This document shows positions 1,977-25,800 of a stretch of DNA of 64,000 nt, piece after piece. The stretch comes from Candidatus Saganbacteria bacterium (GTDB lineage Bacteria > Margulisbacteria > WOR-1 > XYC2-FULL-46-14 > WPAF01): positions 977-64,976 of the forward strand of contig WPAF01000003.1 of NCBI GenBank assembly GCA_009772965.1. The letters run 5' to 3'. The translations under genes were made by a program, and so were the position numbers. The notes below the pieces were generated by a model, which was given only the letters and a program-made list of their open reading frames with translations, was not told the origin of the DNA and searched no databases. How positions within the stretch are numbered: position 1 is the stretch's first letter; every line of letters begins with the position of its first letter.

Positions 1977-1984
1977 TCTCTCCT

Positions 1985-2868: not shown

Positions 2869-3142
2869 TTATTTTCTTTATTTCAACAAAAGTATATTTA
2901 TTGATCGATTCGCTTACTTTTATAATCATACTTTTGAGAATTCCCATTTTTCGAACAATTTCTTTGATTTGTCTCTTTATTCTGTTTCTTTTAACGGCAT
3001 TGCCAATCTTTTTTCCTATTACAACGCCTAATTTTCCCTCATTATCGCTTGCTAAAACAAAAAGGCCAATCTCGGTTATCTTTTTCCTGCCTTCTCTAAA
3101 TATCTTTTTAAATTCGGCGCCTTTTTTAAGTGTTTTAAACAG
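2852..3142 (-). CDS. rnpA: Ribonuclease P protein component RnpA (start codon uncertain, possibly CTG)
   Basis: My translation of the minus strand reads (L)[20 protein letters not shown]...[24 protein letters not shown], which matches the RnpA KIGNAV.RNR.KR core. The ORF track missed it because no ATG/GTG/TTG lies between the upstream in-frame TAG and the conserved N-terminus. Confidence 0.75.
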
Positions 3143-3275
3143 AAAGCTTTTTTCTTCCTTTGGATCTTCTTCTGGCTAAAACTCTTTTTCCCCCACGGGT
3201 TTTTGATTTAACCAAGAATCCGTGAGTTCTTTTTCTTCTTATCATATGCGGCTGATATGTTCTTTTTGATCCCAT
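3135..3275 (-). CDS. rpmH: 50S ribosomal protein L34
   Basis: My translation is [46 protein letters not shown], a canonical L34 sequence. At 46 aa it falls below the ORF-track length cutoff. Confidence 0.92.
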
Positions 3276-3348
3276 AATATTAATTATACGTTTTTTTGTT
3301 TGGTGTTGTCAATGAATATTTATACATCCTATTTTCGTCCTTGCATTA

Positions 3349-3444
3349 TTATCCACATATTGATATTATATAGCTCAAGAGAAGGAAAAATGAAATTCAT
3401 CGCTGTGGATAACCGTGTTGACAACCATATGTTTCTGTTGATAA
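3349..3444. promoter_or_regulatory. DnaA-box cluster in the rpmH-dnaA spacer (dnaA promoter / oriC part)
   Basis: TTATCCACA at 3349-3357 and TGTGGATAA at 3404-3412 are both perfect and inverted relative to each other. The variant TGTTGATAA is at 3436-3444, with TGTTGACAA in between. Confidence 0.7.
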
Positions 3445-3456
3445 CTGGGTTAATTT

Positions 3457-4824
3457 GTGAATATTGATATTGATATTCATAATATTTGGGCTAAATTGCT
3501 TCCAGAAATCGAAAAAAGCCTAAGCAGGCCGCTTTATGAAACTCTGGTTTCTTCTGCTAAACCTCTAGAATTTAAAGATGGCGTTTTGCGAGTCGCCGTT
3601 CCTCATGAAGTTATAAAGGATTGGCTTTTAAAACATTGTTTAGCTCTTCTTGAAGGTGAAATTCAATTTATCAACAATAATATCAAAAAAATTGTTTTTT
3701 TTGTTGGGCCAAAGGATATGTTTCAAACGCCTGCGATAGAAGAATCCGGCATGCCTGATTTTCATGAAAATATTTCGAGGTCAATTCAAGTTGCCAAATT
3801 AAATCCCCGCTACACTTTTGATACATTTGTTGTTGGAAACGGCAACAGATTTGCCCACGCCGCCTCCCAAGCAGTTGCCGGAAATCCTGCGAATGTTTAT
3901 AATCCTTTATTTATTTATGGCGGGGTAGGGCTCGGAAAAACGCATCTGATGCAGGCGATAGGGTATGTTGTTCTTAAAAACTTTCCGAAAAAGCAAGTTC
4001 TTTATTTAACCTGCGAAATGTTCACTAACGATCTTATCCAATCAATCCAAACCGGAAAAATGCATGAGTTTAGAAATAAATACAGGAATAATGATTTGTT
4101 AATGGTTGACGATATCCAATTTTTAGCCGGAAAAGAAAGGACTCAAGAAGAGTTTTTCCACACCTTTAACGCGCTTCACGAAGCAAGAAAACAAATAATT
4201 GTTTCATCGGATCGTCCGCCAAAAGAAATTCCAACTTTAGAAGAAAGGCTGCTTTCTAGGTTTGAATGGGGGTTAATCGCGGACATTCAATCTCCCGACT
4301 TTGAAACCAGGATCGCTATTTTACGCAAAAAGGCGGATCTTGTTGAAGTAAACGTCCCAAATGAGGTAATCAACCTTATTGCCTCCAAAGTTTCTTCAAA
4401 CATCAGGGAATTGGAAGGCGCCTTAATCAGGGTTGTCGCGTTTGCCTCTCTCTCGTCATCGGATATTTCCGTTCCATTGGTTGAAGAAATTTTAAAGGAT
4501 ATATTAACCCCTAAAAAAGGCAATTCTTCTGTTTCAATTGATATTATAAAGAAATTGGTCGCTGAATATTATTCGGTTAGAATTGACGATATGTCGGCAA
4601 AAATCAGGACAAAAGAAATTGCCAACGCCAGGCAAGTTGCCATGTATTTATCCAGAGAATTAACCTCGGCTTCACTCCCAAAAATTGGCGCCGAGTTCGG
4701 AGGCAGGGATCATTCCACTGTGATACACGCGTGTGAAAAAATTAAATCGGCGATAAAAGAAGATAAAGAAGTTGATGAGGCGTTAAAAAACATCCTAAAA
4801 AGCTTGAAAAAGTATGCTCCTTAG
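3457..4824 (+). CDS. dnaA: Chromosomal replication initiator DnaA
   Basis: 455 aa with a GTG start. Walker A GGVGLGKTHL, DDIQFL, and the C-terminal DNA-binding signature GGRDHSTVIHA are present. Confidence 0.97.
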   Translation: MNIDIDIHNIWAKLLPEIEKSLSRPLYETLVSSAKPLEFKDGVLRVAVPHEVIKDWLLKHCLALLEGEIQFINNNIKKIVFFVGPKDMFQTPAIEESGMPDFHENISRSIQVAKLNPRYTFDTFVVGNGNRFAHAASQAVAGNPANVYNPLFIYGGVGLGKTHLMQAIGYVVLKNFPKKQVLYLTCEMFTNDLIQSIQTGKMHEFRNKYRNNDLLMVDDIQFLAGKERTQEEFFHTFNALHEARKQIIVSSDRPPKEIPTLEERLLSRFEWGLIADIQSPDFETRIAILRKKADLVEVNVPNEVINLIASKVSSNIRELEGALIRVVAFASLSSSDISVPLVEEILKDILTPKKGNSSVSIDIIKKLVAEYYSVRIDDMSAKIRTKEIANARQVAMYLSRELTSASLPKIGAEFGGRDHSTVIHACEKIKSAIKEDKEVDEALKNILKSLKKYAP

Positions 4825-5085
4825 TCCTGTTGAAAAGCTTTTGATAACCTGTTTATAATTGTTGGTTTTTGTTGATAAATTCCATTGTTTTCTAATAACT
4901 TTTTGAGCCTGTTAATTACTTGTCCTATTTTTTTGCGTTGCAGCAAATTATATTTTGTTTATCAACATATTCACACTTCCTATTACTACTCTTTTATATT
5001 ATAATTACTATCATTACGTTTCATGATGTTAATAAGTTTTTAAAGCGGGACATTAAATTTAGAAATATGTTAAAGGGGGAGAAAA
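4825..5085. promoter_or_regulatory. AT-rich dnaA-dnaN spacer with variant DnaA boxes (candidate oriC / unwinding region)
   Basis: TGTTGATAA at 4870-4878 and its complement TTATCAACA at 4959-4967. A long AT-rich tract runs from about 4920 to 5040. Confidence 0.5.
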
Positions 5086-6213
5086 ATGGAATTCATTTTT
5101 AATAAAAATACTTTTCAATCAGGCGTGTCAATTGTAGAAAGAATCGTATCAACAAAAAGCACTCTTCCAATAATTGGGAATATATTAATAGAAGCAGAAA
5201 AATCAGGAGTAAAGCTTTCAGCAAATAACCTGGAAATGGGAATTGAAATTAAAATACCGGCAAAAATAGTTAAAGAGGGTTCAATCTTAATTCCCGCGAA
5301 AACACTAAGCGGAATAGTTTCAAAACTTCCGGACAGCGATGTGAATTTTAAATTAAAAGAAAAAGGCGTAATCGCGATAAGCTATAAAAAGTCAAATTTC
5401 AACATCCATGGATTGCCGGCCGATGAATTTCCCCAGCTTCCGAGAATAAAGGAAAACAAGACAATAAAAATAGATAAAAAAATATTCCAAAGAATGATAG
5501 AGCAGACAATATTTTCATCATCAAGCTCTGAGGAAAAATTCGTGTTGAACGGTATTTTATTTGAAACCGGAAAAACCGATGGATCAAACGTAAGGATGGT
5601 CGCGACAGACGGATATAGGTTGGCAAAAATAGGGGAGACAATTGACGGAGTAGATATTAATGTCAGCGCGATTATCCCTTCAAAAGCTTTGAGCGAACTT
5701 CTAAAAATAATTAATGCTGAAAAAGAAGGAAATGTAACAATAAATATTTCATCCGACCAGGCGGCTTTCAACTTTAATAATGTTTATTTGGTCACAAGGC
5801 TGATCCAAGGGCAATTTCCGGATTATAAACAGGTAATCCCCAAGATGCTTGAAATTAAAATATTTGCGAATACAAAAATGCTGCTGCAGTCGTCAGAAAG
5901 GGCGGCGGTAATTGCTTCACAAAGCGCGAATATCGTAAAAATTGAAGTGAGGGGAGGGCAATTATATATTTCAGCCCAAGCGCCTGATGTCGGGTCGGTA
6001 GAAGAAGTATTGGATGTTGAAGTTAAGGGAAAAGAAAAGGCGGCTGCGGCGTTTAATATAAGGCTTTTAACAGACGCGCTAAAAGTAATAGAAGAAGAGT
6101 TTATAGTTTTGGAATTAGGCGCTCCGCTCAGTCCTGGAATGATAAAGCCAAAAGACGGGCCGGATTTTACATATATAGTAATGCCTATAAGGACGCAAGA
6201 GGTTTCTGCTTGA
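5086..6213 (+). CDS. dnaN: DNA polymerase III beta sliding clamp
   Basis: 375-aa ORF directly after dnaA. The length suits a three-domain clamp and the N-terminal pattern is typical (F.I.K..F...V..V...V..K.TLPIL.NILIEA). Confidence 0.95.
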   Translation: MEFIFNKNTFQSGVSIVERIVSTKSTLPIIGNILIEAEKSGVKLSANNLEMGIEIKIPAKIVKEGSILIPAKTLSGIVSKLPDSDVNFKLKEKGVIAISYKKSNFNIHGLPADEFPQLPRIKENKTIKIDKKIFQRMIEQTIFSSSSSEEKFVLNGILFETGKTDGSNVRMVATDGYRLAKIGETIDGVDINVSAIIPSKALSELLKIINAEKEGNVTINISSDQAAFNFNNVYLVTRLIQGQFPDYKQVIPKMLEIKIFANTKMLLQSSERAAVIASQSANIVKIEVRGGQLYISAQAPDVGSVEEVLDVEVKGKEKAAAAFNIRLLTDALKVIEEEFIVLELGAPLSPGMIKPKDGPDFTYIVMPIRTQEVSA

Positions 6214-6509
6214 CAGAGCTCCTGTCAGAAATACTCAAAGGCTCAGAAATAAATAAATTAATAAAAAACGCGAATATTGTATTATTATGGAGCGAATGCG
6301 TACCGCGGGAAATCGCGAAAAACACGGAAGCGATAAAAATAAGGAACAAGGTTTTATATGTGGATGCGAAAACCTCTGTTTGGGCGCAGGAGCTGAATTT
6401 TTTAAAAAAAGAAATTTTGGAAAAGATTAATGAGATAGCGGGGTTTAAGGCAGTAGCGGATATCAGGTTTAAAGCTGGAGGAAACGGAAATGACAAAAGA
6501 AAAATATGA
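6210..6509 (+). CDS. DUF721 / DciA-like small protein
   Basis: 99 aa in the slot between dnaN and gyrB, overlapping both neighbours. The pattern ...W..VVP..IA..T..I.I.N.VLYV...SSVWAQEL.F.K..IL..IN is typical of DUF721. Confidence 0.75.
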   Translation: MTELLSEILKGSEINKLIKNANIVLLWSECVPREIAKNTEAIKIRNKVLYVDAKTSVWAQELNFLKKEILEKINEIAGFKAVADIRFKAGGNGNDKRKI

Positions 6510-8451
6510 TGCGTCTAAGATAAAAATTCTTGGAGGCATTGAGGCGGTCAGAAAAAGACCCGCGATGTATATTGGATCAACAGGAAAAGCCGGGCTCCAC
6601 CATTTAGTATACGAAGTTGTTGATAACAGTGTGGATGAAGCGCTGGCCGGACATTGCAGCCTGGTTGGAGTAACAATACACAAAGATAATTCGGTATCGG
6701 TTGAGGATGACGGCAGGGGAATTCCATTCGACATACATCCTGAAACAAAAAGGCCGGCGGCGGAAGTGGTTTTAACCACGCTTCATGCCGGCGGAAAGTT
6801 TGGCGACTCGGTTTACAAGGTGTCCGGCGGATTGCACGGCGTTGGAGTTTCGGTTGTAAACGCGCTTTCCGAATGGATGGAGGCGGTAATTTGGAGGGAA
6901 GGGAAAGAATACTTTCAAAAATTCGATAGGGGAGAGCCGGAGCCGGAAAAAATAAAAAACATAAAGGACGCGGAAAAACACGGGACAAAAATAAATTTTT
7001 TACCGGACAAGGAAATATTTACAGAACTTGTTTTTGATTACGATACGGTTAAGCACCGCCTGCAGGAATTGGCATTTTTAAATAAAGGAATAAAAATAGT
7101 CTTAATAGATGAACGGGAGGAAGAAGTTAAGGCAGAAACCTTTTTCTATGAGGGCGGAGTAATAGAATTTATTGAACATTTAAACAAGGGCAAAGAAATG
7201 ATGTATAAGCCCCCGGCGGTTTTTTCTGGCGAAAAAGACGATGTTTTTGTCGAGGTCGGGCTCCAGCATTGTAAAGATTACTATGATGAAAATGTGTATT
7301 CCTATGTAAACTGCATTAGGACTAAAGAAGGCGGCACCCATGTTGTCGGGTTTAAAACGGCATTGACAAGAGTTGTAAATACTTACGGGCACAAAAACGG
7401 GCTGATTAAAGAAAACGAAACACTTCAGGGAGAAGATGTCAGGGAGGGATTGACGGTAGTTCTCAATACCAGAGTTCCAAACCCGCAATTTGAAGGGCAA
7501 ACCAAAACAAAGCTTGGCAATAGCGAAGTCAAAGGAATAGTGGATTCAATCGTTGTTGACGGCTTGGCAAATTACTTGGACAGAAATCCGGCCGCGGCGA
7601 AAACGATGATTGAAAAATCAATGCTGGCGTTTCGGGTAAGGGCGGCGGCGAGAAAAGCGCAGGAGCTTGAAAGAAAAAAATCGGCGCTTGATACGGCAAT
7701 GCTTCCCGGAAAGCTTGCAGACTGCTCGGAAACAAATGCCGCGAAATGCGAAATATTTATGGTTGAGGGCGACTCCGCCGGCGGCTCTGCCAAGCAGGGG
7801 AGAGATAGGAAATTTCAGGCGATACTGCCATTGCGGGGAAAAATTTTAAACGTTGAAAAAGCCCGCCTGGACAAAATACTGACAAACAATGAAATAAGGA
7901 CAATTATCACTGCCATCGGTCCGGGTGTTGTGACCGGACTTAAGGGCGGAGAGAATGGAAGCGGCGACAAAGAAACAGAGGTAACCGAAGAAAAAATAAT
8001 GAAGGAACTGCGTTATCATAAAATTATTCTCATGTGCGACGCGGATGTTGACGGCAGCCACATCAGAACCCTCATACTGACATTTTTTTACCGATATGCC
8101 AGAGAATTGATAGAAAGAGGATTTATTTATATTGCCCAGCCGCCGCTTTATTTAGTAAAAAAAGGAAAACAGCAAAAGTATGCATATAACGATGAAGAAA
8201 TGAATAAATTGGTAAAAGAATTTGGCAAAGACGGGGTTGGCGTGCAAAGATATAAAGGGCTGGGAGAGATGAATCCTGACCAGCTTTGGGAAACAACCAT
8301 GAATCCGGAAACCAGGACACTGCTTCAGATAACCCTTGAAGATGCTGAAGTCGCGGATGTGATTTTTAATGTTTTAATGGGCACGGAGGTCGAACCCAGA
8401 AGAGAATTTATTGAAAAGCATGGGAAAGAAGTAAAGAGGTTAGACATATAA
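6490..8451 (+). CDS. gyrB: DNA gyrase subunit B
   Basis: 653 aa with [17 protein letters not shown] (GHKL ATPase), the EGDSAGG Toprim motif and [12 protein letters not shown]. Confidence 0.97.
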
Positions 8452-10949
8452 TGGTTAAGAAAAGATCGGCATCTCCCGGAAGCCAAGACCCAAAAGAAGT
8501 AAATTTGCACGGAAAAATTGTTCAAACGACCATAGAACATGAGATGAAATCATCATACATTGACTACGCTATGAGCGTTATTGTGGGCAGGGCGCTTCCT
8601 GACGCGAGAGACGGATTAAAGCCAGTCCATCGCAGGATACTTTTTGCCATGGACGATTTGGGGCTTCACCCAAACAAGGCATACAAAAAATCCGCCAGGG
8701 TTGTTGGTGAAACTTTAGGAAAATACCATCCCCATGGAGATCTCTCCGTATACGACGCTATGGTTCGCATGGCGCAGGAATTCTCAATGAGATATATGCT
8801 GGTGGATGGGCAGGGCAATTTTGGGTCAGTAGACGGAGATTCTGCCGCGGCGATGAGATATACAGAAGTGCGCTTAATGCGCATGGCTTCGGAGATGCTG
8901 AATGATATTGAAAAAGAAACCGTAAATTTTGGGCCAAACTTTGACGAATCATTGCAAGAGCCGCTGGTTCTCCCTTCAAAATTTCCAAACCTCCTGGTAA
9001 ATGGCTCTTCGGGAATCGCGGTCGGCATGGCAACAAATATTCCGCCGCAAAATTTGTCTGAAGCTATTGATGGAATTATCGCAACTATAGAGAATCCTGA
9101 GATAACAGCAGAAGACCTGATAAAAATCGTAAAGGGGCCGGATTTTCCAACCGGCGGATTAATTTGCGGGAAACAAGCGATAAAAGACGCCTATCTTACC
9201 GGCAGAGGATTGATAACTGTTCGGGCAAGAGTTGAAACAGAAGAAATTCGCGGCGATAAAACCGCAATCATAGTCAAAGAACTGCCTTACCAGGTAAACA
9301 AGGCAGAATTAATTATAGCAATCGCGAATCTGGTAAAAGAGAAAAAAATAGTCGGGATATCGGATTTAAGAGACGAGTCAGACAGGGACGGCATGAGAAT
9401 TTATATTGAGCTAAAGCGCGACGTAAATTCTGAAGTGGTCTTAAACCAGCTTTACAAGCGGACAAACATGCAGACCACTTTTGGCGTCAATATGGTTGCG
9501 CTGGTTGATGGCGTTCCCAAGCTTTTAACCTTAAAAGATTTGATAAGCGTATTTATTAAACACAGGGAAGACGTTGTAACCAGAAGGACAAAATTCGAAC
9601 TGAAAAAAGCAGAAGAGCAGGCGCACATATTAGAAGGGATCTTGATCTGCCTTTCAAATCTTGACGCCGTAATTAAACTTATCCGAGGCAGCAAGAATGT
9701 TGATGAAGCGCGGGAAGGCTTACAGAAAAAATTTGAATTGAGCCAGATCCAAGCGCAGGCAATCCTTGACATGAAGCTGCAAAAATTAACCCAATTGGAA
9801 AGAGAAAAAATTGAAGAAGAACATAAGGCGCTTCAAAAGCTTATCGCGGAATTGAAAAAAATCCTTTCGGACATAAAAGAAATTTTGAAAATAATTGTCA
9901 AAGAATTGAATGAAATTAAAGAAGCCTATGGAGACAAAAGAAGAACCTCGCTGGTCGGAGCCGCGGAGGATATTTCTATTGAGGAACTAATCCCGGAAAT
10001 GGAAGTGGCAATATTATTTACCAGGGACGGATATATAAAACGAATGCCTGTTAGCGCCTTTAGGTCTCAGCTTAGGGGAGGCCGCGGAGTGAGCGGCATG
10101 GCAACCAGGGAAGAGGATCAAATAGATAAAATGTTTGTTTCTTCCACGCACAGCTATATATTATTTTTTACAAACAAGGGCAAGGTGCATAAAGTAAAAG
10201 TTTTTGAACTTCCGGAGGCAAGCCGGGCGGGAAAGGGCTCAAGCATTGCCAACTTTTTGCAAGTAGGAGAAGGGGAAAAGATTACCTCCGCCGTGCAAGT
10301 GGACACCTTTGACAAGAAAACCTTTCTCATGATGGCAACAACCATGGGAATGATTAAAAAAGTAGCAGTTCAAGACTTCCAAAACATAAGAAAATCCGGG
10401 ATTAACGCGATAAAACTAAAAGAAACAAATGAGCTTGATTGGGTAGAAGAAACAGACGGAAGCCAAGAGGTATTGCTTGGCACGCAAAGCGGATTAATGA
10501 TTCGATTCAACGAAAAAACGGTAAGAGCCATGGGCAGGACGGCTTCGGGTGTTAGGGGCATTAGAATTGGCAAAGGGGATAAGGTTGTTTCGATGGGTAT
10601 TGTAAAGCCAAAAGGCGACCTGCTTGTAATTTCAGACCACGGCTTTGGGAAGAGGATGAAGATGGATGAGTTTGGCGTGCAGGGCAGGGGAGGAAAGGGC
10701 CATATAGCGATAAAATTGCGGGATAATGACAAGGTTGCCGGAATGATGGTTATTGATAATGATGATGAGTTGCTTTTTGTTACCGCAAAGGGGACAATGA
10801 GCAGGCAAGCGGCGTCAGGGATATCCACCCAGGGCAGATATGCAAAAGGCGTCCGCATCCAGAGAATGGATGAAGGGGATAGTGTTGTAGCCTTGGCCAG
10901 AGTGGTTAAAAAGGAAGAAATAAACTTGGAGGCGAAAAATGAAGGATGA
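8451..10949 (+). CDS. gyrA: DNA gyrase subunit A
   Basis: 832 aa with [11 protein letters not shown], the AAMRYTE active-site Tyr region and C-terminal beta-pinwheel repeats. Confidence 0.97.
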
Positions 10950-11166
10950 AATAAAAGAAATTGACATCAAGCAGAATGAAGGCGTTTTGGATAGAGCAAT
11001 AAGAATTATTGTTGGTCTTGTTTTGGTTTGGTTAGTTTTTTCTTTTAATGATATCCCCGCTTTTTCCTGGCTGATTTTGATAATTGGCTTAGTTTTGGTT
11101 GTTAATGGAGTAAGCGGAGTCAGCTTTATCTACTGGCTGCTTAAAATCAAAACAACAAAAAAATGA
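10939..11166 (+). CDS. DUF2892-type small membrane protein (YgaP-like TM domain)
   Basis: 75 aa with the [12 protein letters not shown] motif followed by two TM helices. Confidence 0.7.
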
Positions 11167-11660
11167 AAGCAAAGAAAAACGGCAAAAATATTGTTTTAAT
11201 CGCAGTTTTATTGTTAGCTTTGTTTATCGGCTACAATTATATTTTCAACAGCAAGCCAAAAATTAAAATATATTTTATGAAAGGCGAGGGCATTACTTCA
11301 GTAGAAAGAAGAATCCTAGAAAACGAAGATGTTTTAAAGCTTTGCGCAAAGGAACTTATCTCCGGCCCAACAAGCAATGAACAAAAAGACGACATCTTCA
11401 GCGAAATCCCGAACAAAGCAAAAATATTGGACATCAAAACAAACGAAGATGTTGTAGAAGTAATTTTTAATGAAGAACTGGAAAATTATGGCGGCGGCAG
11501 CGCAAGGGTGCAGGGGCTGATTTCACAAATAGTTTACACTTTTACAGAAATCCCCGGAATAAAACGAGTTAAAATTTCAGTTAGGGGAAGGGATGAAGTG
11601 GCCTTGGGAGGGGAAGGATACGTGATTGATAAGCCTCTTTCTAGGGAAGATTTAAGATAG
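11163..11660 (+). CDS. GerMN domain-containing protein
   Basis: 165 aa with an N-terminal TM/signal anchor. The GerMN-like core reads GGGSARVQGLISQIVYTFTEIPGIKRVKISV.G. Confidence 0.7.
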   Translation: MKAKKNGKNIVLIAVLLLALFIGYNYIFNSKPKIKIYFMKGEGITSVERRILENEDVLKLCAKELISGPTSNEQKDDIFSEIPNKAKILDIKTNEDVVEVIFNEELENYGGGSARVQGLISQIVYTFTEIPGIKRVKISVRGRDEVALGGEGYVIDKPLSREDLR

Positions 11661-11675
11661 CTCAATAAATTTCGC

Positions 11676-11731
11676 TTGACCTTTTTAAGTTCAGCTGTTA
11701 TTATTCATCCTACAAATGAGACAATATTGTC
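11676..11731 (+). promoter_or_regulatory. Sigma70-type promoter plus 12-bp palindrome upstream of the AbiE pair
   Basis: TTGACC (11676-11681), a 17-nt spacer, then TATTAT (11699-11704). The perfect palindrome GACAATATTGTC at 11720-11731 lies between the -10 and the start codon and is a candidate operator. Confidence 0.55.
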
Positions 11732-11749
11732 CTATATGGAGGATGTGTT

Positions 11750-12550
11750 ATGCTAAAAGATGAATTAAATGACCGAGCTAAGGAAGAAGGCCTCACACTA
11801 AAAATCCTCGAAAAGGAGGCTCTGCAAATTTACATCCTGAGCGAATTGTTCGCTCTGCCTGAATCAACATTGTTGACCTTTCAGGGCGGAACTTGCTTGC
11901 GGCTGGTATATGGCGGGGTGCGTTACTCGGAAGATCTGGACTTTTTGACAACCGCTGACAACGATACAATTTTCCTAATCATCAATAACCTGACAAAAGC
12001 GCTTGCTTGGCTGGAGCCGCTTTTTGGCGGGAAGTTCATTGTCAAAAAACAAAAGGAATCCTCAACTTTTTTTCGCTATCGAATTCACAGCGAGAAAGAA
12101 AATTATCATGATTCGTTCTTCGTAAGCGTAGAATTTGCCCGGTATCCGGCCTATACCCTAAACATTTCGTCCCTACATCTGCAAAGAGAATTGCCGGGAT
12201 TGCCGCTGACCCTGGTTCGAGCGGAAAAACCTGAAGAACTGCTGGCCGATAAATTGTGCGCCATTGCCGGCCGCCCTTTCTGCAAAGGGCGTGATTATTT
12301 TGATCTTTGGCTGTTAAAACAACAAGGCATCAAACTCAATTCTGAATTATTGGGAAAAAAACTCAAAGATTATAACATTCCTTCCTCCTGTTTGGCTCGC
12401 GGCCTGGAACTTGCTTCGGCAGAAAGCATTAAAAATGAAATGGAAAGATTTTTACCTCAAAAATATCGGAGACAGTTTGAAGCCAATGGCTATATTGGTA
12501 TGCTGCAAGAAGCGCAAGGGTTGATCAAAGAAGGAATACAAGCGCTATGA
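11750..12550 (+). CDS. AbiEii/AbiGii-family nucleotidyltransferase toxin (DUF1814)
   Basis: 266 aa. LTFQGGTCLRLVYGGVRYSEDLDF is the typical AbiEii NTase N-terminal signature. Confidence 0.8.
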   Translation: MLKDELNDRAKEEGLTLKILEKEALQIYILSELFALPESTLLTFQGGTCLRLVYGGVRYSEDLDFLTTADNDTIFLIINNLTKALAWLEPLFGGKFIVKKQKESSTFFRYRIHSEKENYHDSFFVSVEFARYPAYTLNISSLHLQRELPGLPLTLVRAEKPEELLADKLCAIAGRPFCKGRDYFDLWLLKQQGIKLNSELLGKKLKDYNIPSSCLARGLELASAESIKNEMERFLPQKYRRQFEANGYIGMLQEAQGLIKEGIQAL

Positions 12551-13134
12551 AAAATTATTTTACCTCCTCCTCCTGGATGGCTCTTTTGCAAAAATTGGGG
12601 AAGGAAAAACAAAAAATTCTGACCCCTCAAACACTGCAGCGGGCCAGCGGCTTAAGCCGTGAAGCAATATTAAAAGCCATCCAACGCCTGAGCCGGCGCG
12701 GTCAGTTGATCAAGCTTTATAAAAAGGCCTATGCCAATAAATTCTCCCCGCCTTCACTTGAAGAAGTAGCCATGTATTATGGCAAGCCCTGTTATGTTTC
12801 CTTTGAGAGCGCGCTTCAAAATTGCGGCATCATTTCGCAAGCGCCGCAAGTGCTGACCTGCGCAACCACGCGAAAATTAAAAAACCTAAGGACGCCGCTG
12901 GGAGAAATTATTTTCCATCACCTCAGCCCCCGCTTATTTATTAGTTTTGAAAATGATAAGGGGATACTTCGCGGTACAGCCGAAAAGGCCCTGCTGGATT
13001 ATTTATATATCAATCTAAAAAATAAAAAACATGCCCCCCCCCTGGATGAATTTAATCTTGAGCAATTGGATAAGAAAAAAATCAGGGGACTTCTTAAATA
13101 TTTTCCCCATAGCGTCCGGGACAGTTTAAGATAA
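12547..13134 (+). CDS. AbiEi-family antitoxin-like transcriptional regulator
   Basis: 195 aa. It has an N-terminal wHTH with the ...RRGQLIKLYKKAY pattern and a C-terminal PCYVSFESALQ...AEKALLDYLY pattern. Its ATGA overlaps the toxin gene. Confidence 0.7.
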   Translation: MKNYFTSSSWMALLQKLGKEKQKILTPQTLQRASGLSREAILKAIQRLSRRGQLIKLYKKAYANKFSPPSLEEVAMYYGKPCYVSFESALQNCGIISQAPQVLTCATTRKLKNLRTPLGEIIFHHLSPRLFISFENDKGILRGTAEKALLDYLYINLKNKKHAPPLDEFNLEQLDKKKIRGLLKYFPHSVRDSLR

Positions 13135-20303: not shown

Positions 20304-20345
20304 AAAGATTTTTAGTTTTTTTGGGATTGTAGTATTGGGACATGG
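20304..20345. repeat. 42-bp direct repeat, copy 1 (flanks the rhuM-fic module)
   Basis: 41 of 42 nt identical to 22491-22532. On the minus strand it reads ATG TCC CAA TAC TAC AAT CCC AAA AAA ACT AAA AAT CTT. Confidence 0.9.
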
Positions 20346-21371
20346 TTAGATTTCTTTAGTATTTTTCTCCAGCGTCTTTACCGTACGATCAAAATCAGAG
20401 ATGTAGTTTTTATCGCGTTCTTCGACATATTTTATATATTCTTCCTCTGCCTTTTTCGAAGCATTTTCTGCACTTATGCTACCAGCATGCGTCAACAATT
20501 CCCGCTCGCTCAAGCGAAGAAAAGCATCAAGTTTAGCTATCCAATCAGCCATTTTCATCAACCTACCTTTTGTTGCCTGCAGTTCAGCAAAATCAAGATA
20601 CATAGATACAATTAGATTCAGCTGTTTCAGCTCATTTTCTTTCAGATAATTCTTAGCAATTTTTGTATCCTGCTGGGTAATATAATTCCCCTTAAAACTG
20701 GTAAGACCCATAAGCGGTTTTTTACTATCCGCCCTTTTTGAAATTATTTCTGCAGCAGTATGGCCATGGACAGCAAAATGCATCTTATTCTGTACAGTTG
20801 CAAAAAATTCTTTTGTAAGCTTCTCGTCTTTCTTATAATCTATACTTGTAGCGTAAATATCTGTCACTTTTTGATAAAAATTCCTTTCACTACTCCTAAT
20901 ATCTCGAATGCGTTGGAGTAGCTCATCAAAATAACGGGCACGGCCTCCACCCTGTTTTAAGCGCTCATCATCAATGGCAAAACCTTTGACAATGTATTCT
21001 TTTAGTCGTTGTGTTGCCCATATCCGAAATTGCGTACCACGCAGTGATTTTACGCGGTAACCAACTGAAATTATGACGTCAAGATTATAATGCTTAACTT
21101 CATAGTCTTTTCCGTCCGAGCCAGTTCGTCGGGATTCCCGACATACTGATTTTTCTTCAAGCTCTCTTTCTTTAAAAATATTATTAACATGTTCTGTAAT
21201 AGTAGAGCGACCTTTCTCAAACAATTCAGCCATTTGATCTTGTGTCAGCCAAACTGTTTCATCCTCTAACCGAACTTCTATTTTTTCACAACCATCCTCT
21301 GTGGTATAAAGAAGGAATGATCCATTTTTGAGGATTGTTTTGTCTTTTTTATCCGCGTCTTTTTTCTTCAT
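20346..21371 (-). CDS. RhuM-family protein
   Basis: 341 aa. The N-terminal pattern LYTTEDG..KIEV.LEDETVWLTQ.QMAELF...RSTITEH..NIF...EL and NLDVIISVGYRV.S..GTQFR.WAT..L match the RhuM family from memory. Confidence 0.75.
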   Translation of the reverse strand: MKKKDADKKDKTILKNGSFLLYTTEDGCEKIEVRLEDETVWLTQDQMAELFEKGRSTITEHVNNIFKERELEEKSVCRESRRTGSDGKDYEVKHYNLDVIISVGYRVKSLRGTQFRIWATQRLKEYIVKGFAIDDERLKQGGGRARYFDELLQRIRDIRSSERNFYQKVTDIYATSIDYKKDEKLTKEFFATVQNKMHFAVHGHTAAEIISKRADSKKPLMGLTSFKGNYITQQDTKIAKNYLKENELKQLNLIVSMYLDFAELQATKGRLMKMADWIAKLDAFLRLSERELLTHAGSISAENASKKAEEEYIKYVEERDKNYISDFDRTVKTLEKNTKEI

Positions 21372-22389: not shown

Positions 22390-22530
22390 GACTATAGATC
22401 CCCCGGCGACCGCCCCTTTCCCATCCTGCGGTCAAGATATTGTTTTTTTTGATCGGCTTAGTTTGAATGGTTCTGGATCATTGGGATGATAAAGATTTTT
22501 AGTTTTTTTGGGATTGTAATATTGGGACAT
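22390..22530 (-). pseudogene. 5' remnant of a PD-(D/E)XK (Cas4/RecB-like) nuclease family gene, frameshifted and deleted
   Basis: The minus strand reads MSQYYNPKKTKNLYHPNDPEPFKLSRSKKTIS*. A shifted frame continues ..YLDRRMGKGRSPG. From memory this resembles the N-terminus (..YNP..TKNL..P....PFKLSRSK....CPRCFYLDRRLG..RP) of a widespread nuclease family. Confidence 0.45.
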
Positions 22531-22532
22531 GG
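22491..22532. repeat. 42-bp direct repeat, copy 2
   Basis: 41 of 42 nt identical to 20304-20345. It begins 5 nt after the stop of the 22538-23050 gene. Confidence 0.9.
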
Positions 22533-22537
22533 GTATT

Positions 22538-23050
22538 TTAAGAGAATATCGGCTTGAAAGCGATACGAAGCATTGGCTTTAGAAATTCTATAGTTTCAGA
22601 CTTTACGGCAACAGTCCAATATTGCTTATTTCTGTCATAAATGATAAACCCTCTATTTCCCAAATCAATCAATTGCATATGAACTTTGTTTGTTGCATTT
22701 TCATTTAAATTTCCAATTATCTGCCAAAGAGGTATTGGCACTGAGGTATAAGTCGCATGGCCATAAATAGTAACCAATAAAAGAAATTCTTCCCCACTAA
22801 GATTCTTTTTTGCCAACTCATTTAAAATATCCTGGGTGCTAACTAAAGAAGTTGGTTCGATATTAGTGTCTATGTTTTTTGTTTGATCAAATAATCCAGT
22901 CACCCCTGGGAAAGAAACTCCTTTCAATCTTTTAAAAAGATCAGCAATTTGTAATCTAAATATAATCACCCCTACTAAAATAGCAAAAGGAAAATTGATA
23001 ACCTTTATCAAATCCAACAAACAATAATATGCAACCTTAATTTCACGCAT
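22538..23050 (-). CDS. Hypothetical N-terminally membrane-anchored protein (third gene of TM/HEPN-like operon)
   Basis: 170 aa with one TM helix (INFPFAILVGVIIFRL) followed by a soluble domain of about 120 aa. No motif recognised. Confidence 0.65.
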   Translation of the reverse strand: MREIKVAYYCLLDLIKVINFPFAILVGVIIFRLQIADLFKRLKGVSFPGVTGLFDQTKNIDTNIEPTSLVSTQDILNELAKKNLSGEEFLLLVTIYGHATYTSVPIPLWQIIGNLNENATNKVHMQLIDLGNRGFIIYDRNKQYWTVAVKSETIEFLKPMLRIAFKPIFS

Positions 23051-23165
23051 TGTTATTACTCCTTATCAAATATTAATCCGGCGACTTTCCTCATCCTGCC
23101 CCTCTCCACCAAAACCGAGAATTCATTAAACATATTATCAGAAACTTCAACCTGAACAATCAAAA

Positions 23166-23651
23166 CTATAGATTAATGCCAAGACCTATTATATGTTTCT
23201 TAAATCCATTGAGCGTGTCGGTCAGATAAGAATATACTAATGTCCTTTTTTCTGAATCACTAATATCAAATCTCATTAGCAGATGCTTAAATGCACGATA
23301 AGTTGTTTTTCCTTTTTTATTCTTCTTTACGTCCGCTTCTTTTTTTATGTAAAGATCTTCATACTTATCGTCTTCATCAAGGGAACAGACAAAAGGCAAA
23401 CTTGTAACTTCAGGGTGTGCCAAAGCATTTCTACACCCTTTAATAGCCTCTCTATCAAAAGCTTCTTTGCCATTTTCCATTAGCACTTCATTTATCCTAT
23501 GAAATACTACAAACAAAAAAAGATATTGGGCCCAAAGTTCATAGGAGGATTCCAGCTCACTTAAACCTTCTCGTATCTGGGTTATTTTTAACTCAACTTT
23601 TTGAGCGACTGAAAACAAGTTTTTCAGTATACGCTCTAACCTTGTCAGCAT
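23166..23651 (-). CDS. Hypothetical small alpha-helical protein with an Rx4H (HEPN-like) motif
   Basis: 161 aa. CRNALAHPE (R74-x4-H79) fits the HEPN RNase motif R[N]xxxH. Helix-rich composition, and the start overlaps the upstream gene stop (ATGCTGA). Confidence 0.6.
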   Translation of the reverse strand: MLTRLERILKNLFSVAQKVELKITQIREGLSELESSYELWAQYLFLFVVFHRINEVLMENGKEAFDREAIKGCRNALAHPEVTSLPFVCSLDEDDKYEDLYIKKEADVKKNKKGKTTYRAFKHLLMRFDISDSEKRTLVYSYLTDTLNGFKKHIIGLGINL

Positions 23652-24250
23652 TTTCCCCTTCTCTTACAACAACAATTTCTTTTTCCGAAAAGAAAAGGCT
23701 TTTCATTTATCCCATTTACAAATAAAATAAATAATATTATAATTAATAATGAGTATGATTTGTCAAATAGTTGGGGTATATCTCTAAATAAAATGAAGAA
23801 AAACAGAATCGCAATTGATATAGCTGTAAATAATGATAAAACAAAAACAAAAGTTCTATGTGTTATTCCTTTATATAAATCGAAATACTCCTTTTTATGT
23901 TCGTCAATTTTCCATTCGGGATATTTACCATTACTCAAATATTCCCTTATTTTTTGAACTTGTTTCCAATTACTATCTGCAAACAAAGTATTTCTTAAGT
24001 AAATTTGAAAAATTGACAAATTTAATATAATTAATACTAAACTTAAGAGCACCAGAACAATCCATTTCCAATCTGCCCCAATAGTAGATTCAAATTTTAC
24101 CCAAGCCATACCGCCATAAATTGCTAAATTCAAAGTTATAAAATAACTTAATAAAAAAGTAGTTATTCCTCGGCCTGATTCATTTATTGACATTAACAAT
24201 TCCCATTCAAGCTTAAGAAGGTCATCTACTTTATTATTCTCTTCTCCCAT
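23645..24250 (-). CDS. Hypothetical 4-TM membrane protein (first gene of operon)
   Basis: 201 aa with four hydrophobic helices, a central loop of about 45 aa and a Cys-rich basic tail (NCCCKRRGKC). An RBS-like AGGAAAGG lies upstream. Confidence 0.7.
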   Translation of the reverse strand: MGEENNKVDDLLKLEWELLMSINESGRGITTFLLSYFITLNLAIYGGMAWVKFESTIGADWKWIVLVLLSLVLIILNLSIFQIYLRNTLFADSNWKQVQKIREYLSNGKYPEWKIDEHKKEYFDLYKGITHRTFVFVLSLFTAISIAILFFFILFRDIPQLFDKSYSLLIIILFILFVNGINEKPFLFGKRNCCCKRRGKC

Positions 24251-24357
24251 ATTTATATTCCTTTCCTAAAACTAGTTACAAATACTTATTAATTATATCT
24301 CCTTGAGAAGGTATCCGCTAGCAAAGGTTACAAATAATAATATGTGCATGTTTTAAC

Positions 24358-24585
24358 CTATCCCCCCCCAGCCAAAGCAATGGCTTCAAATAAAACATCA
24401 AATTGAAAAGAGGCAACAGAAGAAGACTGGCGGTTTTTTAATTTTTCATACGTCGGATTTGCCCTATAAGCATCAACACACTCGGATAATTTTATAAATC
24501 GCGCCAGATCAAACTTTGGCGCGAAAGAAAAAATTGAAAACTATTTATCACGATCCTTTTTCTCTATCTCCAAAAGCTTTTTCAT
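24358..24585 (-). pseudogene. Short reading frame interrupted by an in-frame TAG (gene remnant)
   Basis: AAAGGAG RBS plus ATG at 24585. It reads MKKLLEIEKKDRDK-TAG-FSIFSFAPKFDLARFIKLSECVDAYRANPTYEKLKNRQSSSVASFQFDVLFEAIALAGGG*. The TAG is at 24541-24543 and the frame ends in a G8 run. Confidence 0.4.
24431..24450. repeat. 20-bp direct repeat, copy 1 (CGGTTTTTTAATTTTTCATA)
   Basis: Identical to 25781-25800, exactly 1350 bp away. Confidence 0.85.
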
Positions 24586-24598: not shown

Positions 24599-25663
24599 TT
24601 AATTTATTATCGGAATCCTTAATAATTTCCAGCGGTCTCTATTATTTGAACAAATGGTATTAATCTGGTTTCTGTCTCGATCCCAATAATAATAATTATC
24701 TTTACAAGAAAAGGCTAAATATCTTCCGTCAGGAGAAAAAGACAATTCAGCAACAGAAAAATCAAATAACTTTTTTGGTTCTTCTTTAATCCTATGCAAA
24801 TCAACCTCGTAAACCGCTCCTGGGATTGTTTTTGTATCCCGAGAACTAAACACTATTTTATTTGGTTCCCGGGGATCAATATCGAAATTCGAAGTTTTAA
24901 TATTAATGATATCTGGTAATTTTCCGCTGTCCATGTCTAAAACCCGCAATTTATTTTCTTTATTAGAAAGAATATCTTCATCTTCCAAAAAGAATAGGTT
25001 TTTCCCATATCTCCATTTCGTAGATGCAGATATGCCAAAAGATGCCACCGGGATATCTGTAAGAATCTTTGTTCCTCCTCCGTTCAATATTGCAATAAAC
25101 AATGTATTATCAGGGGAAACATTTATTTTGCCATTGCTAGCTTTTTGATATTTTTTTCCTCTAAAGATAAAAGATTTACTGTCTGGTGCCCAATCTAAAA
25201 AGGCGGCGCCGAGAACGGGAGTTTCAATTGTTTCATGAATAGTCTTATCTTCCATCTTCATGATTTTGAAAGCATAATCATGCCATTTTGACAGATATCT
25301 TTTAATAAAGTACTTACCATCTGGCGATATTTGCCTATAGTCTAGCGGGATATCATCCTGATCTAAAAGGTTCATATAAGGACGAATATCTTTTTCTATT
25401 TTATCCTTCCTAAAACCAAATGAGCCGATTGTTATTTTGTAGGTTTCGTAGATTTTTGGTCTATCCGGAGGAAAATGCCCCTTATATATAGGAAGGTACT
25501 GACCTAAATTACTAAGCGGAGTTAATATAAAATCTCGATCATCGTATGCTATTACATTAACAAATAATGAATTATTGTCTGACCATAATAAGCCATAAGC
25601 AGAATTACAAAGCATAGCTATGGCTATCCCAAACAATAAAAAACCTTTAATATATTGACGCAT
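24599..25663 (-). CDS. Secreted PD40/TolB-like beta-propeller repeat protein
   Basis: 354 aa with a signal peptide. Repeats ISPDGKYFIKR and FSPDGRYLAFS are typical of WD40-like PD40 blades. Confidence 0.7.
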   Translation of the reverse strand: MRQYIKGFLLFGIAIAMLCNSAYGLLWSDNNSLFVNVIAYDDRDFILTPLSNLGQYLPIYKGHFPPDRPKIYETYKITIGSFGFRKDKIEKDIRPYMNLLDQDDIPLDYRQISPDGKYFIKRYLSKWHDYAFKIMKMEDKTIHETIETPVLGAAFLDWAPDSKSFIFRGKKYQKASNGKINVSPDNTLFIAILNGGGTKILTDIPVASFGISASTKWRYGKNLFFLEDEDILSNKENKLRVLDMDSGKLPDIINIKTSNFDIDPREPNKIVFSSRDTKTIPGAVYEVDLHRIKEEPKKLFDFSVAELSFSPDGRYLAFSCKDNYYYWDRDRNQINTICSNNRDRWKLLRIPIIN

Positions 25664-25706: not shown

Positions 25707-25780
25707 TGACACATAATTGCCCACGCGATAAATTGCGTTTCTACATACGTATATATACCTCTCCTGAAAAAACAAACCGT

Positions 25781-25800
25781 CGGTTTTTTAATTTTTCATA
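25781..25800. repeat. 20-bp direct repeat, copy 2
   Basis: Identical to 24431-24450 and covers the stop codon of the truncated dinD-like gene. Confidence 0.85.

Follow-up and report, generated by a model that had tools for sequence, protein, structure and literature searches.

Three adjacent genes in the window (the whole stretch of 64,000 nucleotides that was analyzed) are best, if tentatively, explained as a patchwork of very rare defense-island cargo, acquired horizontally and transcribed together, rather than as a dedicated three-component system. Their products are a putative four-helix membrane protein (gene 1), a soluble helical protein with an R-N-x3-H motif (gene 2), and a protein with one N-terminal hydrophobic segment (gene 3), which an earlier note on this DNA had proposed to act together as a novel system. 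The three minus-strand ORFs described in that note (22538–24250; 201, 161, and 170 aa) were reproduced, as was the sequence ATGCTGA, in which the stop codon of gene 1 overlaps the start of gene 2 by 4 nt (Table 1). The proposal of a novel three-gene system finds only partial support, since the three genes are not kept together: the families of genes 1 and 2 are split elsewhere, and gene 3 is without a homolog. When the co-occurrence of the three families across genomes was analyzed, genes 1 and 2 were found together only in the clonal population from which the window comes.

Table 1. Features of the three-gene block and of the region upstream of it (positions in the window)
Feature	Position	Strand	Description
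Gene 1	23645–24250	minus	201-aa ORF
Gene 2	23166–23651	minus	161-aa ORF
Gene 3	22538–23050	minus	170-aa ORF
CRNALAHPE motif codons (C73–E81)	23409–23435	minus	Candidate Rx4H active-site motif
Putative promoter/operator of gene 1	24275–24336	minus	TATTTGTAAC twice, 52 nt apart, around TATAAT at 24292–24297
GC-rich 8-bp hairpin, UCGCGCCA-N10-UGGCGCGA	24499–24524	minus	3' of a 354-aa gene; present in the MFE and centroid folds

An SD-like sequence, GAAGGGGA, lies just 5' of the overlap between genes 1 and 2, and a terminator scan found no terminator-like site inside the three-gene block. Based on the 4-nt overlap, this SD-like site, and the uninterrupted block, genes 1 and 2 are probably coupled. 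Gene 3 follows gene 2 after a gap of 115 nt and has a ribosome-binding site of its own (AAGGAG, 8 nt upstream of its start). All three ORFs are intact and have good ribosome-binding sites despite lying in AT-rich DNA in which stop codons are frequent. The GC content is 0.31–0.34 over 22–25 kb and 0.40–0.47 in the flanks, and the AT-richness of the operon relative to core genes, previously judged by eye, was borne out by GC3 values of 0.21–0.29, compared with 0.40–0.43 in OmpH, LpxD, and GT4. Direct repeats that bracket cassettes lie on both sides of the block, and this position, together with the low GC3, argues for a foreign origin. The contigs with this locus are all 99.94% or more identical and therefore give no evidence of selection within the lineage. 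In one of them (L003), a homopolymer run is longer by one A, which breaks gene 1; this frameshift may be an assembly error.

The two copies of the direct repeat GTTACAAATA upstream of gene 1, at 24275 and 24327, are the only exact ones in the window and lie on either side of the TATAAT as had been reported. Only 0.15 copies are expected, and 1 of 100 shuffled sequences reached two. When the TATTTGTAAC repeat is extended to 15 nt, its copies are 87% identical. No −35 element was found near the TATAAT, and a consensus promoter scan did not call the site. A type III antitoxin-like or other RNA element was also considered for the region upstream of gene 1 and was rejected, since neither a tandem array nor a stable RNA fold was detected there (fold z-score +0.88). 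The hairpin listed in Table 1 is followed by an A/U-rich stretch and was missed by the terminator scan because its loop is longer than 8 nt; this structure may be a terminator that insulates the transcription unit of gene 1.

Analysis of the surrounding islet confirmed the Fic (E=2.8e-23), RhuM (E=2.3e-112), and Bro-N/DinD genes that had been reported as neighbors. The DinD match (E=1.1e-62) spans model positions 10–182 of 288, so this gene is truncated, as claimed, and breaks off at 174 aa. The gene start MSQYYNPKKTKNL, with which a neighboring remnant of a putative nuclease gene begins, is duplicated. An AbiEii gene (PF08843, 11750–12550) does lie 10 kb away, together with its own partner. 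The window contains no R-M gene or Type IIG remnant, and no integrase, transposase, or phage structural or packaging genes were found in the islet. Comparison of four neighbor proteins with PDB sequences returned nothing. The islet also holds a secreted beta-propeller gene that is without a link to defense.

The predicted defense-type setting holds beyond the window. In all five independent contexts, recognized defense genes lie within one to three genes of the family member; context statistics rest on these five loci because each family comprises only three sequence clusters. The closest relative of gene 2 is encoded in a Margulisiibacteriota MAG (locus L001; two sequence-identical loci, L013 and L014, were counted with it as one context), where it lies beside an AbiV HEPN gene (E=1.6e-17) and a gene for a 275-aa R-x4-H protein (LRHRIVH). 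No TM gene adjoins this relative, and pnp is directly upstream. In locus L010, the gene 2 relative is preceded by HmaC/DUF499 (E=9.5e-25) and by a 3-TM protein with a weak SLATT_4/2TM match; when the gene 1 family was aligned with this 3-TM protein by hhalign, no homology was found (probability 6.6%). Loci L005 and L009 each contain a Type IIG R-M gene (PADLOC E=4.4e-118) and a 4-TM gene of the gene 1 family, which in L005 is followed by a gene for a 267-aa protein containing FRNLLSH and in L009 only by an IS200-like transposase gene. Because the two families occur separately in L001, L005, and L009, an obligate gene 1–gene 2 pair is excluded.

Among 5.8 billion proteins, gene 1 homologs were found in two further clusters, P0003 and P0004, which are 57–60% identical to gene 1. 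The genes for both homologs start 1–4 nt after MmeI-like Type IIG R-M genes; the two R-M enzymes are 33% identical to each other, and their 4-TM genes are 61% identical. For gene 2, a search of 1.84 billion cluster representatives gave two relatives, P0002 (65% identity) and P0007 (25% identity). A further candidate from an exhaustive search, P0006 (3,294 aa, E=2.9e-18), was discarded as spurious because this surface protein is repetitive and its score adds up the contributions of 19 repeats. GTDB genomes, IMG/VR, and JGI metagenomes contributed no additional members to either family; the single metagenome match is the same contig as L005. Searches of phages and plasmids (tblastn) with either gene also returned nothing. 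The dN/dS values of the gene 1 family (0.16–0.30) and of gene 2 (0.17) reflect purifying selection, which indicates that both are real genes. Neither gene matched a named family in Pfam, NCBIfam, PADLOC, or PHROGs, and the statement of the earlier note that no family could be recognized stands to that extent; what the note overlooked in finding no named system is that the neighborhood is of a known R-M/HEPN/Fic/DOC/RhuM type.

The four TM helices ascribed to gene 1 are plausible because hydropathy shows strong hydrophobic segments at residues ∼55–86, 131–159, and 160–188 and a weaker one at 29–51. From hydropathy and charge distribution, gene 1 is predicted to be N-in/C-in with a 47-aa basic cytoplasmic loop at residues 85–131; the loop is conserved and distinctive. 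The Cys-rich basic tail mentioned in the earlier note is present in gene 1 and is not conserved, being missing from both homologs. Comparison with PDB sequences gave no match to gene 1. Weak, sub-threshold matches to PycTM/2TM effector models (E 0.017–0.16; best 0.017 for PycTM and 0.035 for 2TM) cover TM1–TM2 in two of the three family members. These matches, and that of the L010 3-TM protein, recall the CBASS/Pycsar effectors of the 2TM, SLATT, and PycTM types, from which gene 1 differs in its four TM helices and conserved loop. With no significant HMM match and no cyclase gene in any of the loci (the window, L005, or L009), the assignment of gene 1 as a CBASS/Pycsar 2TM or SLATT effector was rejected. 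P0003 also matches PF24838 (8xMP) over model positions 13–132 of 136 with 22 bits (E=1.5e-4), which is below the 30 bits set as the gathering threshold. Neither the window protein nor P0004 matches 8xMP, and we treat the similarity as a lead only; a literature search for this name returned PDB codes alone.

Gene 2 is soluble and helical, with no hydrophobic TM segment by hydropathy, and the CRNALAHPE motif previously recognized in it, an R-N-x3-H sequence, was found again at residues 73–81. When the three family members are compared, R74, A76, A78, H79, P80, and E81 do not vary, and residue 75 is N in the window protein and P0007 (RNAFAH) and D in P0002 (RDALAH). At 25% identity, the resulting block, h-R-[ND]-A-x-A-H-P-E, is better conserved than any other part of gene 2. 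In the published HEPN signature, Rx4-6H, the R is directly followed by a polar residue (N, D, or H), and the motif lies at the end of the third helix (PMC3710099); gene 2 has such a residue directly after R74. In the AF2 model, helices span residues 4–29, 37–59, 67–77, and 133–156, with a low-confidence insert at 78–132; R74 is near the end of predicted helix 3, and H79 begins the loop that follows (overall pLDDT 57.6). The end of helix 2 bears an acidic residue (E55, E in P0002, and D in P0007); the acidic residue of HEPN helix 2 is typically part of Ex3[KR], and the x3-K form is present only in P0007 (DTLQK). The R followed by N or D is a published feature of HEPN proteins, and the acidic residue of helix 2 and the predicted placement of R74 and H79 may correspond to two others (PMC3710099). 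Gene 2 is a HEPN-like candidate.

Fold comparisons of gene 2 were not significant. The helix order is compatible with HEPN in a model whose pLDDT is 57.6 overall and below 50 at residues 78–132, and the search for a HEPN bundle by AlphaFold and Foldseek that the earlier note had proposed did not yield one: the best E values were 0.64 (PDB) and 0.19 (BFVD), and HepT chains appeared at E 2.6–4.7 amid generic helical bundles. None of the three family members matched a Pfam HEPN model even at E≤10. The family profile, which was built from three sequences and thus has low power, gave two non-significant, unrelated matches among PDB sequences (none named Csx28) and hhalign probabilities below 1% against the 143- and 267-aa proteins of L005, the 275-aa protein of L001, and AbiV. 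A match to phrog_12570 (E=7.6e-4) was set aside as chance because it was seen in only one of the three members. Of the 93 window ORFs with 100 aa or more, 2 contain R[ND]xxxH, and the expectation for a length of 161 aa is 0.013, or ∼1 per 75 proteins of this size, so the motif alone is within the chance of a whole-window scan. The sole Rfam match in the islet, Trp_leader_2 at 23501–23635, lies inside the gene 2 coding sequence and was dismissed (34 bits against a threshold of 100, E=0.11). Based on these results, the claim that gene 2 is a HEPN RNase is upheld as to the motif, which is kept at 25% identity, and not as to a significant fold match. The likeliest reading is that gene 2 belongs to the HEPN superfamily as a new, small, and highly divergent member.

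Gene 3 has one N-terminal hydrophobic segment by hydropathy (residues 8–40, with a helix at ∼17–36), in agreement with the single N-terminal TM helix described earlier. Its only match among 5.8 billion proteins is itself, and nothing was found in PDB sequences, phages, plasmids, Pfam, NCBIfam, PADLOC, or PHROGs. A 170-codon ORF in DNA of ∼33% GC, with AAGGAG 8 nt upstream, is probably a real gene. The AF2 model, made from a single sequence, is unusable (pLDDT 40); its secondary-structure order at residues 72–164 is H-H-H-b-b-b-H, into which the wHTH order H-H-H-beta-beta fits, and by that order the C-terminal domain is possibly a winged helix.

The HEPN-TM immune system has a two-gene architecture (DefenseFinder FS_HEPN_TM). 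This system is named in phage-inducible chromosomal islands (PICIs; PMC12948488), and with Csx27/Csx28 and the TM-fused HEPN families it shows that pairings of TM and HEPN proteins already have names, contrary to the statement that the block resembles no named system. HEPN-TM is like the present block in placing a HEPN-type protein and a membrane protein in a small mobile defense locus. The gene 1 and gene 2 families differ from it in that they also occur apart, and the absence of integrase and packaging genes argues against a PICI location; PADLOC v2 gave no match on the block. Csx27 and Csx28, the accessory proteins of type VI-B CRISPR-Cas13b (10.1101/092577), are membrane effectors of ∼20 kDa each that amplify nuclease-based defense. 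Csx27 has several TM segments, and Csx28 combines a TM helix with a four-helix bundle whose divergent Rx4-6H motif is a non-catalytic oligomer interface rather than an RNase site (10.1101/2021.11.02.466367). The block shares with them small size and the combination of a TM protein with an Rx4-6H-motif protein, whereas gene 2 is without a TM segment. Membership of the block in the Csx27/Csx28 group was rejected because no Cas13b is present among the Pfam-annotated genes at ∼1,750–34,000 of the window, no repeat array is present at 19.5–27 kb, and the profile search of PDB sequences found no similarity to Csx28. In the TM-fused HEPN families (DUF4145-related and others; PMC3710099, section 15), the HEPN-type domain is predicted at the cytoplasmic face of the inner membrane and the two parts form one polypeptide; here they are separate genes whose pairing is not conserved. 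A HEPN-MNT (HepT-MntA) type II toxin-antitoxin system was likewise rejected, since it requires an adjacent nucleotidyltransferase gene and no MNT antitoxin gene lies beside the gene 2 family member in the window, L001, or L010; the AbiEii gene is distant and has a partner of its own.

The nearest likeness of the locus as a whole is to the PrrC-EcoprrI paradigm (Anantharaman et al. 2013, PMC3710099). That study links 16 or more HEPN clades to R-M systems, frequently accompanied by Fic/DOC or RhuM, and describes a fusion with DUF499 in one clade (PMC3710099). The block resembles these neighborhoods in having a small Rx4H protein by Fic and RhuM, in its mobile low-GC region, and in the location of relatives by AbiV, DUF499/HmaC, and (via gene 1) Type IIG R-M genes. 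DinD is also present in the window islet, beside Fic and RhuM. Unlike the paradigm, the window contains no R-M genes, gene 2 is not fused to an ABC-ATPase or any other domain, and its sequence is not detectably similar to PrrC, RloC, ApeA, or the HEPN families of Pfam; a 4-TM partner, in turn, does not belong to the paradigm.

It is possible, if doubtful, that the block is a true two- or three-component abortive-infection module, in which activation of the gene 2 RNase would be coupled to membrane depolarization by gene 1, with or without gene 3, as in HEPN-TM of PICIs or Cas13b-Csx28. The translational coupling of genes 1 and 2, the recurrence of an R-x4-H protein after a TM protein in the window, L005, and L010, where the parts are not homologous, the PycTM/2TM matches over TM1–TM2, and the named precedents (PMC12948488; 10.1101/2021.11.02.466367) are consistent with such a module. 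The other loci speak against it: pnp takes the place of a TM partner in L001, only a transposase gene follows the 4-TM gene in L009, the L010 3-TM protein is not homologous to gene 1, and gene 3 is unique to its lineage. The 2TM matches, moreover, have E values of at least 0.017 and fall on hydrophobic segments, which are prone to compositional bias. A related and bolder possibility, which we consider a long shot, is that the gene 1 family is a hitherto unrecognized modular membrane adaptor or effector located 3' of different immune enzymes that target nucleic acids (the two divergent Type IIG R-M enzymes and, in the window, a HEPN-like RNase) and that gene 2 founds a new HEPN clade working with gene 1; nuclease activation would then lead to membrane depolarization or growth arrest, extending by analogy the logic of Cas13b-Csx28 to R-M systems.

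Two further explanations give the block no part in immunity, or none any longer. These may be unrelated mobile-element or lineage-specific genes gathered in a recombination hotspot, with R-N-x3-H as a structural or binding feature and not an RNase site. The motif is short, the corresponding motif of Csx28 is an oligomer interface, no link to any defense or HEPN family is statistically significant, and a beta-propeller gene shares the islet. We nevertheless consider this reading unlikely, since all five independent contexts adjoin recognized defense genes, conservation within gene 2 is highest in the motif block, and the islet is free of integrase, transposase, and phage structural genes. Alternatively, because the island is decaying (the truncated DinD and the remnants), the block could consist of relics that no longer work together, left behind by a degraded R-M/Abi locus and preserved whole only by chance in a clonal population. 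The lack of an R-M gene or remnant, the near-identity of the locus contigs, and the contig with a broken gene 1 are in keeping with decay. The frameshift falls in a homopolymer, the three ORFs are intact in DNA rich in stop codons, and the between-lineage dN/dS of genes 1 and 2 shows constraint, all of which make decay improbable.

If the block is a patchwork of defense cargo, gene 2 would act as a metal-independent RNase through R74, N75, and H79 that is activated by infection or stress; once activated, it would cut host or phage RNA and cause growth arrest (abortive infection). Gene 1 would be a modular inner-membrane partner that attaches 3' of nucleic-acid-targeting defense enzymes, a Type IIG R-M protein elsewhere and the HEPN-like protein here, and would serve as a membrane sensor, an anchor, or a second, membrane-depolarizing effector. 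Gene 3 would be a lineage-specific add-on, possibly a membrane-tethered winged-helix regulator. The whole islet would thus be the remnant of an R-M/HEPN/Fic/DOC/RhuM-type defense neighborhood that lacks the R-M component.

Pairings of TM and HEPN proteins (HEPN-TM, Csx28) and R-M/HEPN/Fic/DOC/RhuM neighborhoods are known already, and the practical value of the new families is limited by their size, three sequence clusters each for genes 1 and 2, all from uncultured organisms. The HEPN superfamily supplies toxins to toxin-antitoxin, abortive-infection, CRISPR, and R-M-linked defenses. Should gene 2 prove to be a genuine HEPN RNase, it would represent a new, extremely rare clade of this superfamily from a poorly studied candidate phylum. 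The less expected result is the presence of the 4-TM family directly after two divergent Type IIG enzymes. This arrangement points to a membrane partner for some single-polypeptide R-M enzymes, a feature that the current view of Type IIG systems does not include.

In an ORF listing of the window, all three genes of the minus-strand block that an earlier note had proposed as one novel HEPN/membrane defence operon were recovered, and the ATGCTGA in which gene 1 ends and gene 2 starts was reproduced on the minus strand. A Shine-Dalgarno-like sequence, GAAGGGGA, is located just 5' of the gene 2 start, gene 3, with an AAGGAG site of its own, lies 115 nt beyond gene 2, and a terminator scan found no terminator-like sites in the 22-25 kb region. 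Judging from stop-codon frequency, it is very unlikely that an ORF of 170 codons with a canonical ribosome-binding site, such as gene 3, occurs by chance in DNA of ∼33% GC. Between lineages, dN/dS is 0.16-0.30 for gene 1 and 0.17 for gene 2, indicating purifying selection. Kyte-Doolittle analysis bore out the four hydrophobic helices proposed for gene 1 and the single N-terminal one proposed for gene 3; gene 2 had none. The trio region, described by eye as AT-rich, is compositionally foreign, with a GC content of 0.31-0.34 (versus 0.40-0.47 in the flanks) and a GC3 of 0.21-0.29 (versus 0.40-0.43 in OmpH, LpxD, and GT4).

Features of the window, and gene orders at loci with homologues of gene 1 (gene 1') or gene 2 (gene 2', gene 2'')
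Feature	Position	Strand	Details
AbiEii	11750-12550		266 aa; PF08843
45-nt direct repeat	20304-20348 and 22491-22535		96% identical; brackets Fic-RhuM cassette
Fic	downstream of trio		PF02661, E=2.8e-23
RhuM	downstream of trio		PF13310, E=2.3e-112
Gene 3	22538-23050	minus	170 aa
Gene 2	23166-23651	minus	161 aa
Gene 1	23645-24250	minus	201 aa
25-nt direct repeat	24426-24450 and 25776-25800		92% identical; brackets beta-propeller gene
GC-rich hairpin	24499-24524	minus	8 bp, 10-nt loop; A/U-rich sequence after
Secreted beta-propeller gene	24599-25663		354 aa
DinD, C-terminally truncated	upstream of trio		NCBIfam E=1.1e-62; covers positions 10-182 of 288
L001 locus			pnp - gene 2' - 275-aa protein (LRHRIVH) - AbiV-type HEPN - purL
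L005 locus	5288-10579		902-aa Type IIG R-M gene - 4 nt - gene 1' - 143-aa helical protein - 267-aa protein (FRNLLSH)
L009 locus			948-aa Type IIG R-M gene - 1 nt - gene 1' - IS200-like transposase gene
L010 locus	2-2329		HmaC C-terminus - Zn-ribbon protein - 147-aa protein - gene 2'' (P0007) - 204-aa protein

As the earlier note had found no recognisable family, so did searches of Pfam, NCBIfam, PADLOC, and PHROGs return no significant match to genes 1-3. Among 5.8 billion proteins, gene 2 matched itself and P0002 (65% identity) only, and gene 3 had no homologue besides itself; gene 1 has two homologue clusters, P0003 and P0004 (57-60% identity). When 1.84 billion cluster representatives were searched exhaustively with a HMMER profile, one remote relative of gene 2 emerged: P0007, at 25% identity (175 aa, E=2.3e-4). 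The second match, a repetitive protein, was judged spurious. GTDB species genomes, IMG/VR, JGI metagenomes, phages, and plasmids contained no additional members. Contigs that carry the locus of the window share at least 99.94% identity and thus represent one clonal population. The families are extremely rare and absent from current databases, with three sequence clusters each for genes 1 and 2, all from uncultured bacteria.

Four independent contexts besides the window contained a homologue (L001, L005, L009, and L010), and each was a defence context, in line with the setting proposed earlier. L001, which has the same sequence as L013 and L014 (the latter from Candidatus Margulisiibacteriota MAG GCA_041650855.1), has a supported AbiV-type HEPN gene (PF18728, E=1.6e-17) and no membrane gene. 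Three consecutive small R-x4-6-H genes (gene 2' with RDALAH, the 275-aa protein of no family with RHRIVH, and the Pfam-supported AbiV HEPN) are wedged between pnp and purL at 10001-11996 of this contig and make up a compact HEPN and HEPN-like islet amid housekeeping genes. At L010, the HmaC C-terminus (Hma defence system, E=9.5e-25) is separated from the gene 2 relative by a 90-aa Zn-ribbon protein and by a 147-aa protein that has a weak HTH_19 match and three TM helices; the view of this locus is limited to a contig of only 2.6 kb.

The gene 1 homologues are found directly 3' of restriction-modification (R-M) genes. The L005 locus, also present on L006-L008 and L011, begins with an MmeI-like Type IIG enzyme (PADLOC E=4.4e-118); its 143-aa protein belongs to no family, and its 267-aa protein carries a textbook FRNLLSH motif yet matches nothing in Pfam or PADLOC. 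Possibly, these genes form a multi-gene defence operon linked to R-M that has yet to be characterised; the opposite strand carries a 23S_rRNA_IVP four-helix-bundle gene. The R-M enzymes of L005 and L009 are 33% identical, whereas their 4-TM proteins are 61% identical, showing that the link between Type IIG R-M and the 4-TM protein recurs with clearly different enzymes. Because either gene 1 or gene 2 occurs without the other, they are not an obligate pair; gene 3 is without a homologue, and the trio is not a conserved system. The proposal of one novel three-gene system was thus only partly borne out.

The Fic, RhuM, truncated DinD, and AbiEii neighbours were found as originally described, and PADLOC lists the first three as candidate defence families (PDC-S04/SoFic, PDC-S05, and PDC-S13, respectively). 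No R-M remnant was found in the window. The trio is flanked by two cassettes, each between its own pair of direct repeats. Within the window, the 45-nt repeat occurs at its two sites only, and both copies encode the same minus-strand gene start, MSQYYNPKKTKNL, indicating that insertion or rearrangement of the cassette duplicated the 5' part of a disrupted gene, which the earlier note calls a nuclease gene. The upstream copy of the 25-nt repeat begins at the stop codon of truncated DinD, which suggests that DinD was split or truncated when the beta-propeller gene was inserted; a short ORF remnant ending in YEKLKNRQSSSVASFQFDVLFEAIALAGGG and a stop follows the downstream copy. The window is near the chromosomal origin (Jag, YidC, DnaA, DnaN, DciA, GyrB, and GyrA in window 1-11000), placing the defence-type islet only ∼20 kb from dnaA. 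At 11750-13134, AbiEii is followed, with a 4-nt overlap, by a 195-aa protein for which no Pfam hit is recorded. The canonical AbiE order has the AbiEi antitoxin first, so this order would be the reverse.

Upstream of gene 1, the 10-mer GTTACAAATA is present in exactly two copies in 64 kb (0.15 expected; two copies in 1 of 100 shuffles), and these bracket a TATAAT. The repeat and TATAAT of the promoter region described earlier are real; the TATAAT has no -35 element, and the site was not called in a scan for consensus promoters. The sequence 5' of gene 1 contained neither a tandem array nor a stable RNA structure, and no Rfam match there was credible. The hairpin that lies ∼75 nt 3' of the beta-propeller stop, missed by the consensus scan because of its loop length, may be the terminator of the beta-propeller transcript, in which case gene 1 would have a separate transcription unit.

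HEPN proteins are recognised by an Rx4-6H motif in which R is followed by N, D, or H, and an acidic residue of helix 2 is often conserved; their sequence is otherwise poorly conserved and tolerates inserts (PMC3710099). Gene 2 has this motif in CRNALAHPE (residues 73-81): R74, A76, A78, H79, P80, and E81 never vary among the three members, N, D, and N occupy position 75, and the block is the most conserved stretch at 25% identity. An acidic residue is kept at the end of predicted helix 2 (E55; D in P0007). A weak AlphaFold2 model (mean pLDDT 57.6; below 50 for residues 78-132) has helices at 4-29, 37-59, and 67-77, an insert with a small hairpin, and a helix at 133-156, an order that would set R74 at the end of helix 3, the expected place of the HEPN motif. 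Foldseek comparison of this model gave best matches at E=0.64 in the PDB, with HepT chains at 2.6-4.7 among generic bundles, and E=0.19 in BFVD. The gene 2 profile matched no PDB sequence, no Pfam HEPN family matched any of the three members at E<=10, and hhalign detected no match between the family and neighbouring HEPN-type proteins. Since R[ND]xxxH is found in 2 of the 93 window ORFs, the motif by itself is weak evidence; its conservation, position, and genomic context raise the probability. The earlier assignment thus stands for the motif; fold and profile searches gave no significant match, and we lean only slightly toward placing gene 2 in the HEPN superfamily. Caution in reading the motif as an RNase site comes from Csx28, a small defence protein in which Rx4-6H forms a pore-oligomer interface instead (10.1101/2021.11.02.466367).

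From its charge distribution, gene 1 is predicted to be N-in/C-in, and its basic cytoplasmic loop of 47 aa is conserved. Its Cys-rich basic tail, noted previously, exists but is missing in both homologues; it spans the last codons, including the overlap with the gene 2 start, and is probably incidental. Gene 1 weakly matches effector models of the PycTM/2TM kind (E 0.017-0.16), and one family member weakly matches Pfam 8xMP (22 bits versus a 30-bit cut-off); both are leads, not evidence. Basic residues after the gene 3 helix probably place its soluble domain in the cytoplasm. The predicted H-H-H-b-b-b-H order, together with the pattern of the sequence, hints at a winged helix; Pfam and PDB sequence searches gave this no support, and the AlphaFold2 model is unusable (pLDDT 40).

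R-M systems are linked to at least 16 HEPN clades, often with Fic/DOC or RhuM toxins in multi-pronged defence, and one HEPN clade is fused to DUF499, an HmaC-type ATPase (PMC3710099); the islet in the window fits this neighbourhood type. TM and HEPN proteins are also paired in TM-fused HEPN families (PMC3710099), Csx27/Csx28 (10.1101/092577; 10.1101/2021.11.02.466367), and the PICI HEPN-TM system (PMC12948488), analogues that the earlier statement of no matching named system overlooks. Our preferred reading, held tentatively, takes the trio as a patchwork of uncommon defence cargo genes that are transcribed together. Gene 2 would be a divergent HEPN-like RNase with an effector or toxin role, gene 1 a modular partner in the membrane, associated elsewhere with Type IIG R-M enzymes, and gene 3 a lineage-specific add-on. 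A genuine integrated abortive-infection module of TM plus HEPN proteins is a rival reading; with gene 1 and gene 2 families found apart, we regard such a module as rather unlikely.

That these are non-immune mobile-element genes with a coincidental motif would accord with the shortness of the motif and with the searches, in which no defence or HEPN family matched significantly; given the defence contexts of the homologues, we consider it improbable. Decaying relics are a still poorer explanation, given the purifying selection on genes 1 and 2. In L003, a contig from another sample, one extra A in a homopolymer (window 23965) splits gene 1 into ORFs of 106 and 112 aa, and two extra G are present in a poly-G tract ∼110 nt 5' of gene 1 (window 24369), differences that could be assembly errors or genuine length (phase-type) variation.

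From these results, we conclude that the trio is a new version of known themes and not categorically new. The least expected finding is a conserved 4-TM gene that is repeatedly welded to divergent Type IIG restriction enzymes.
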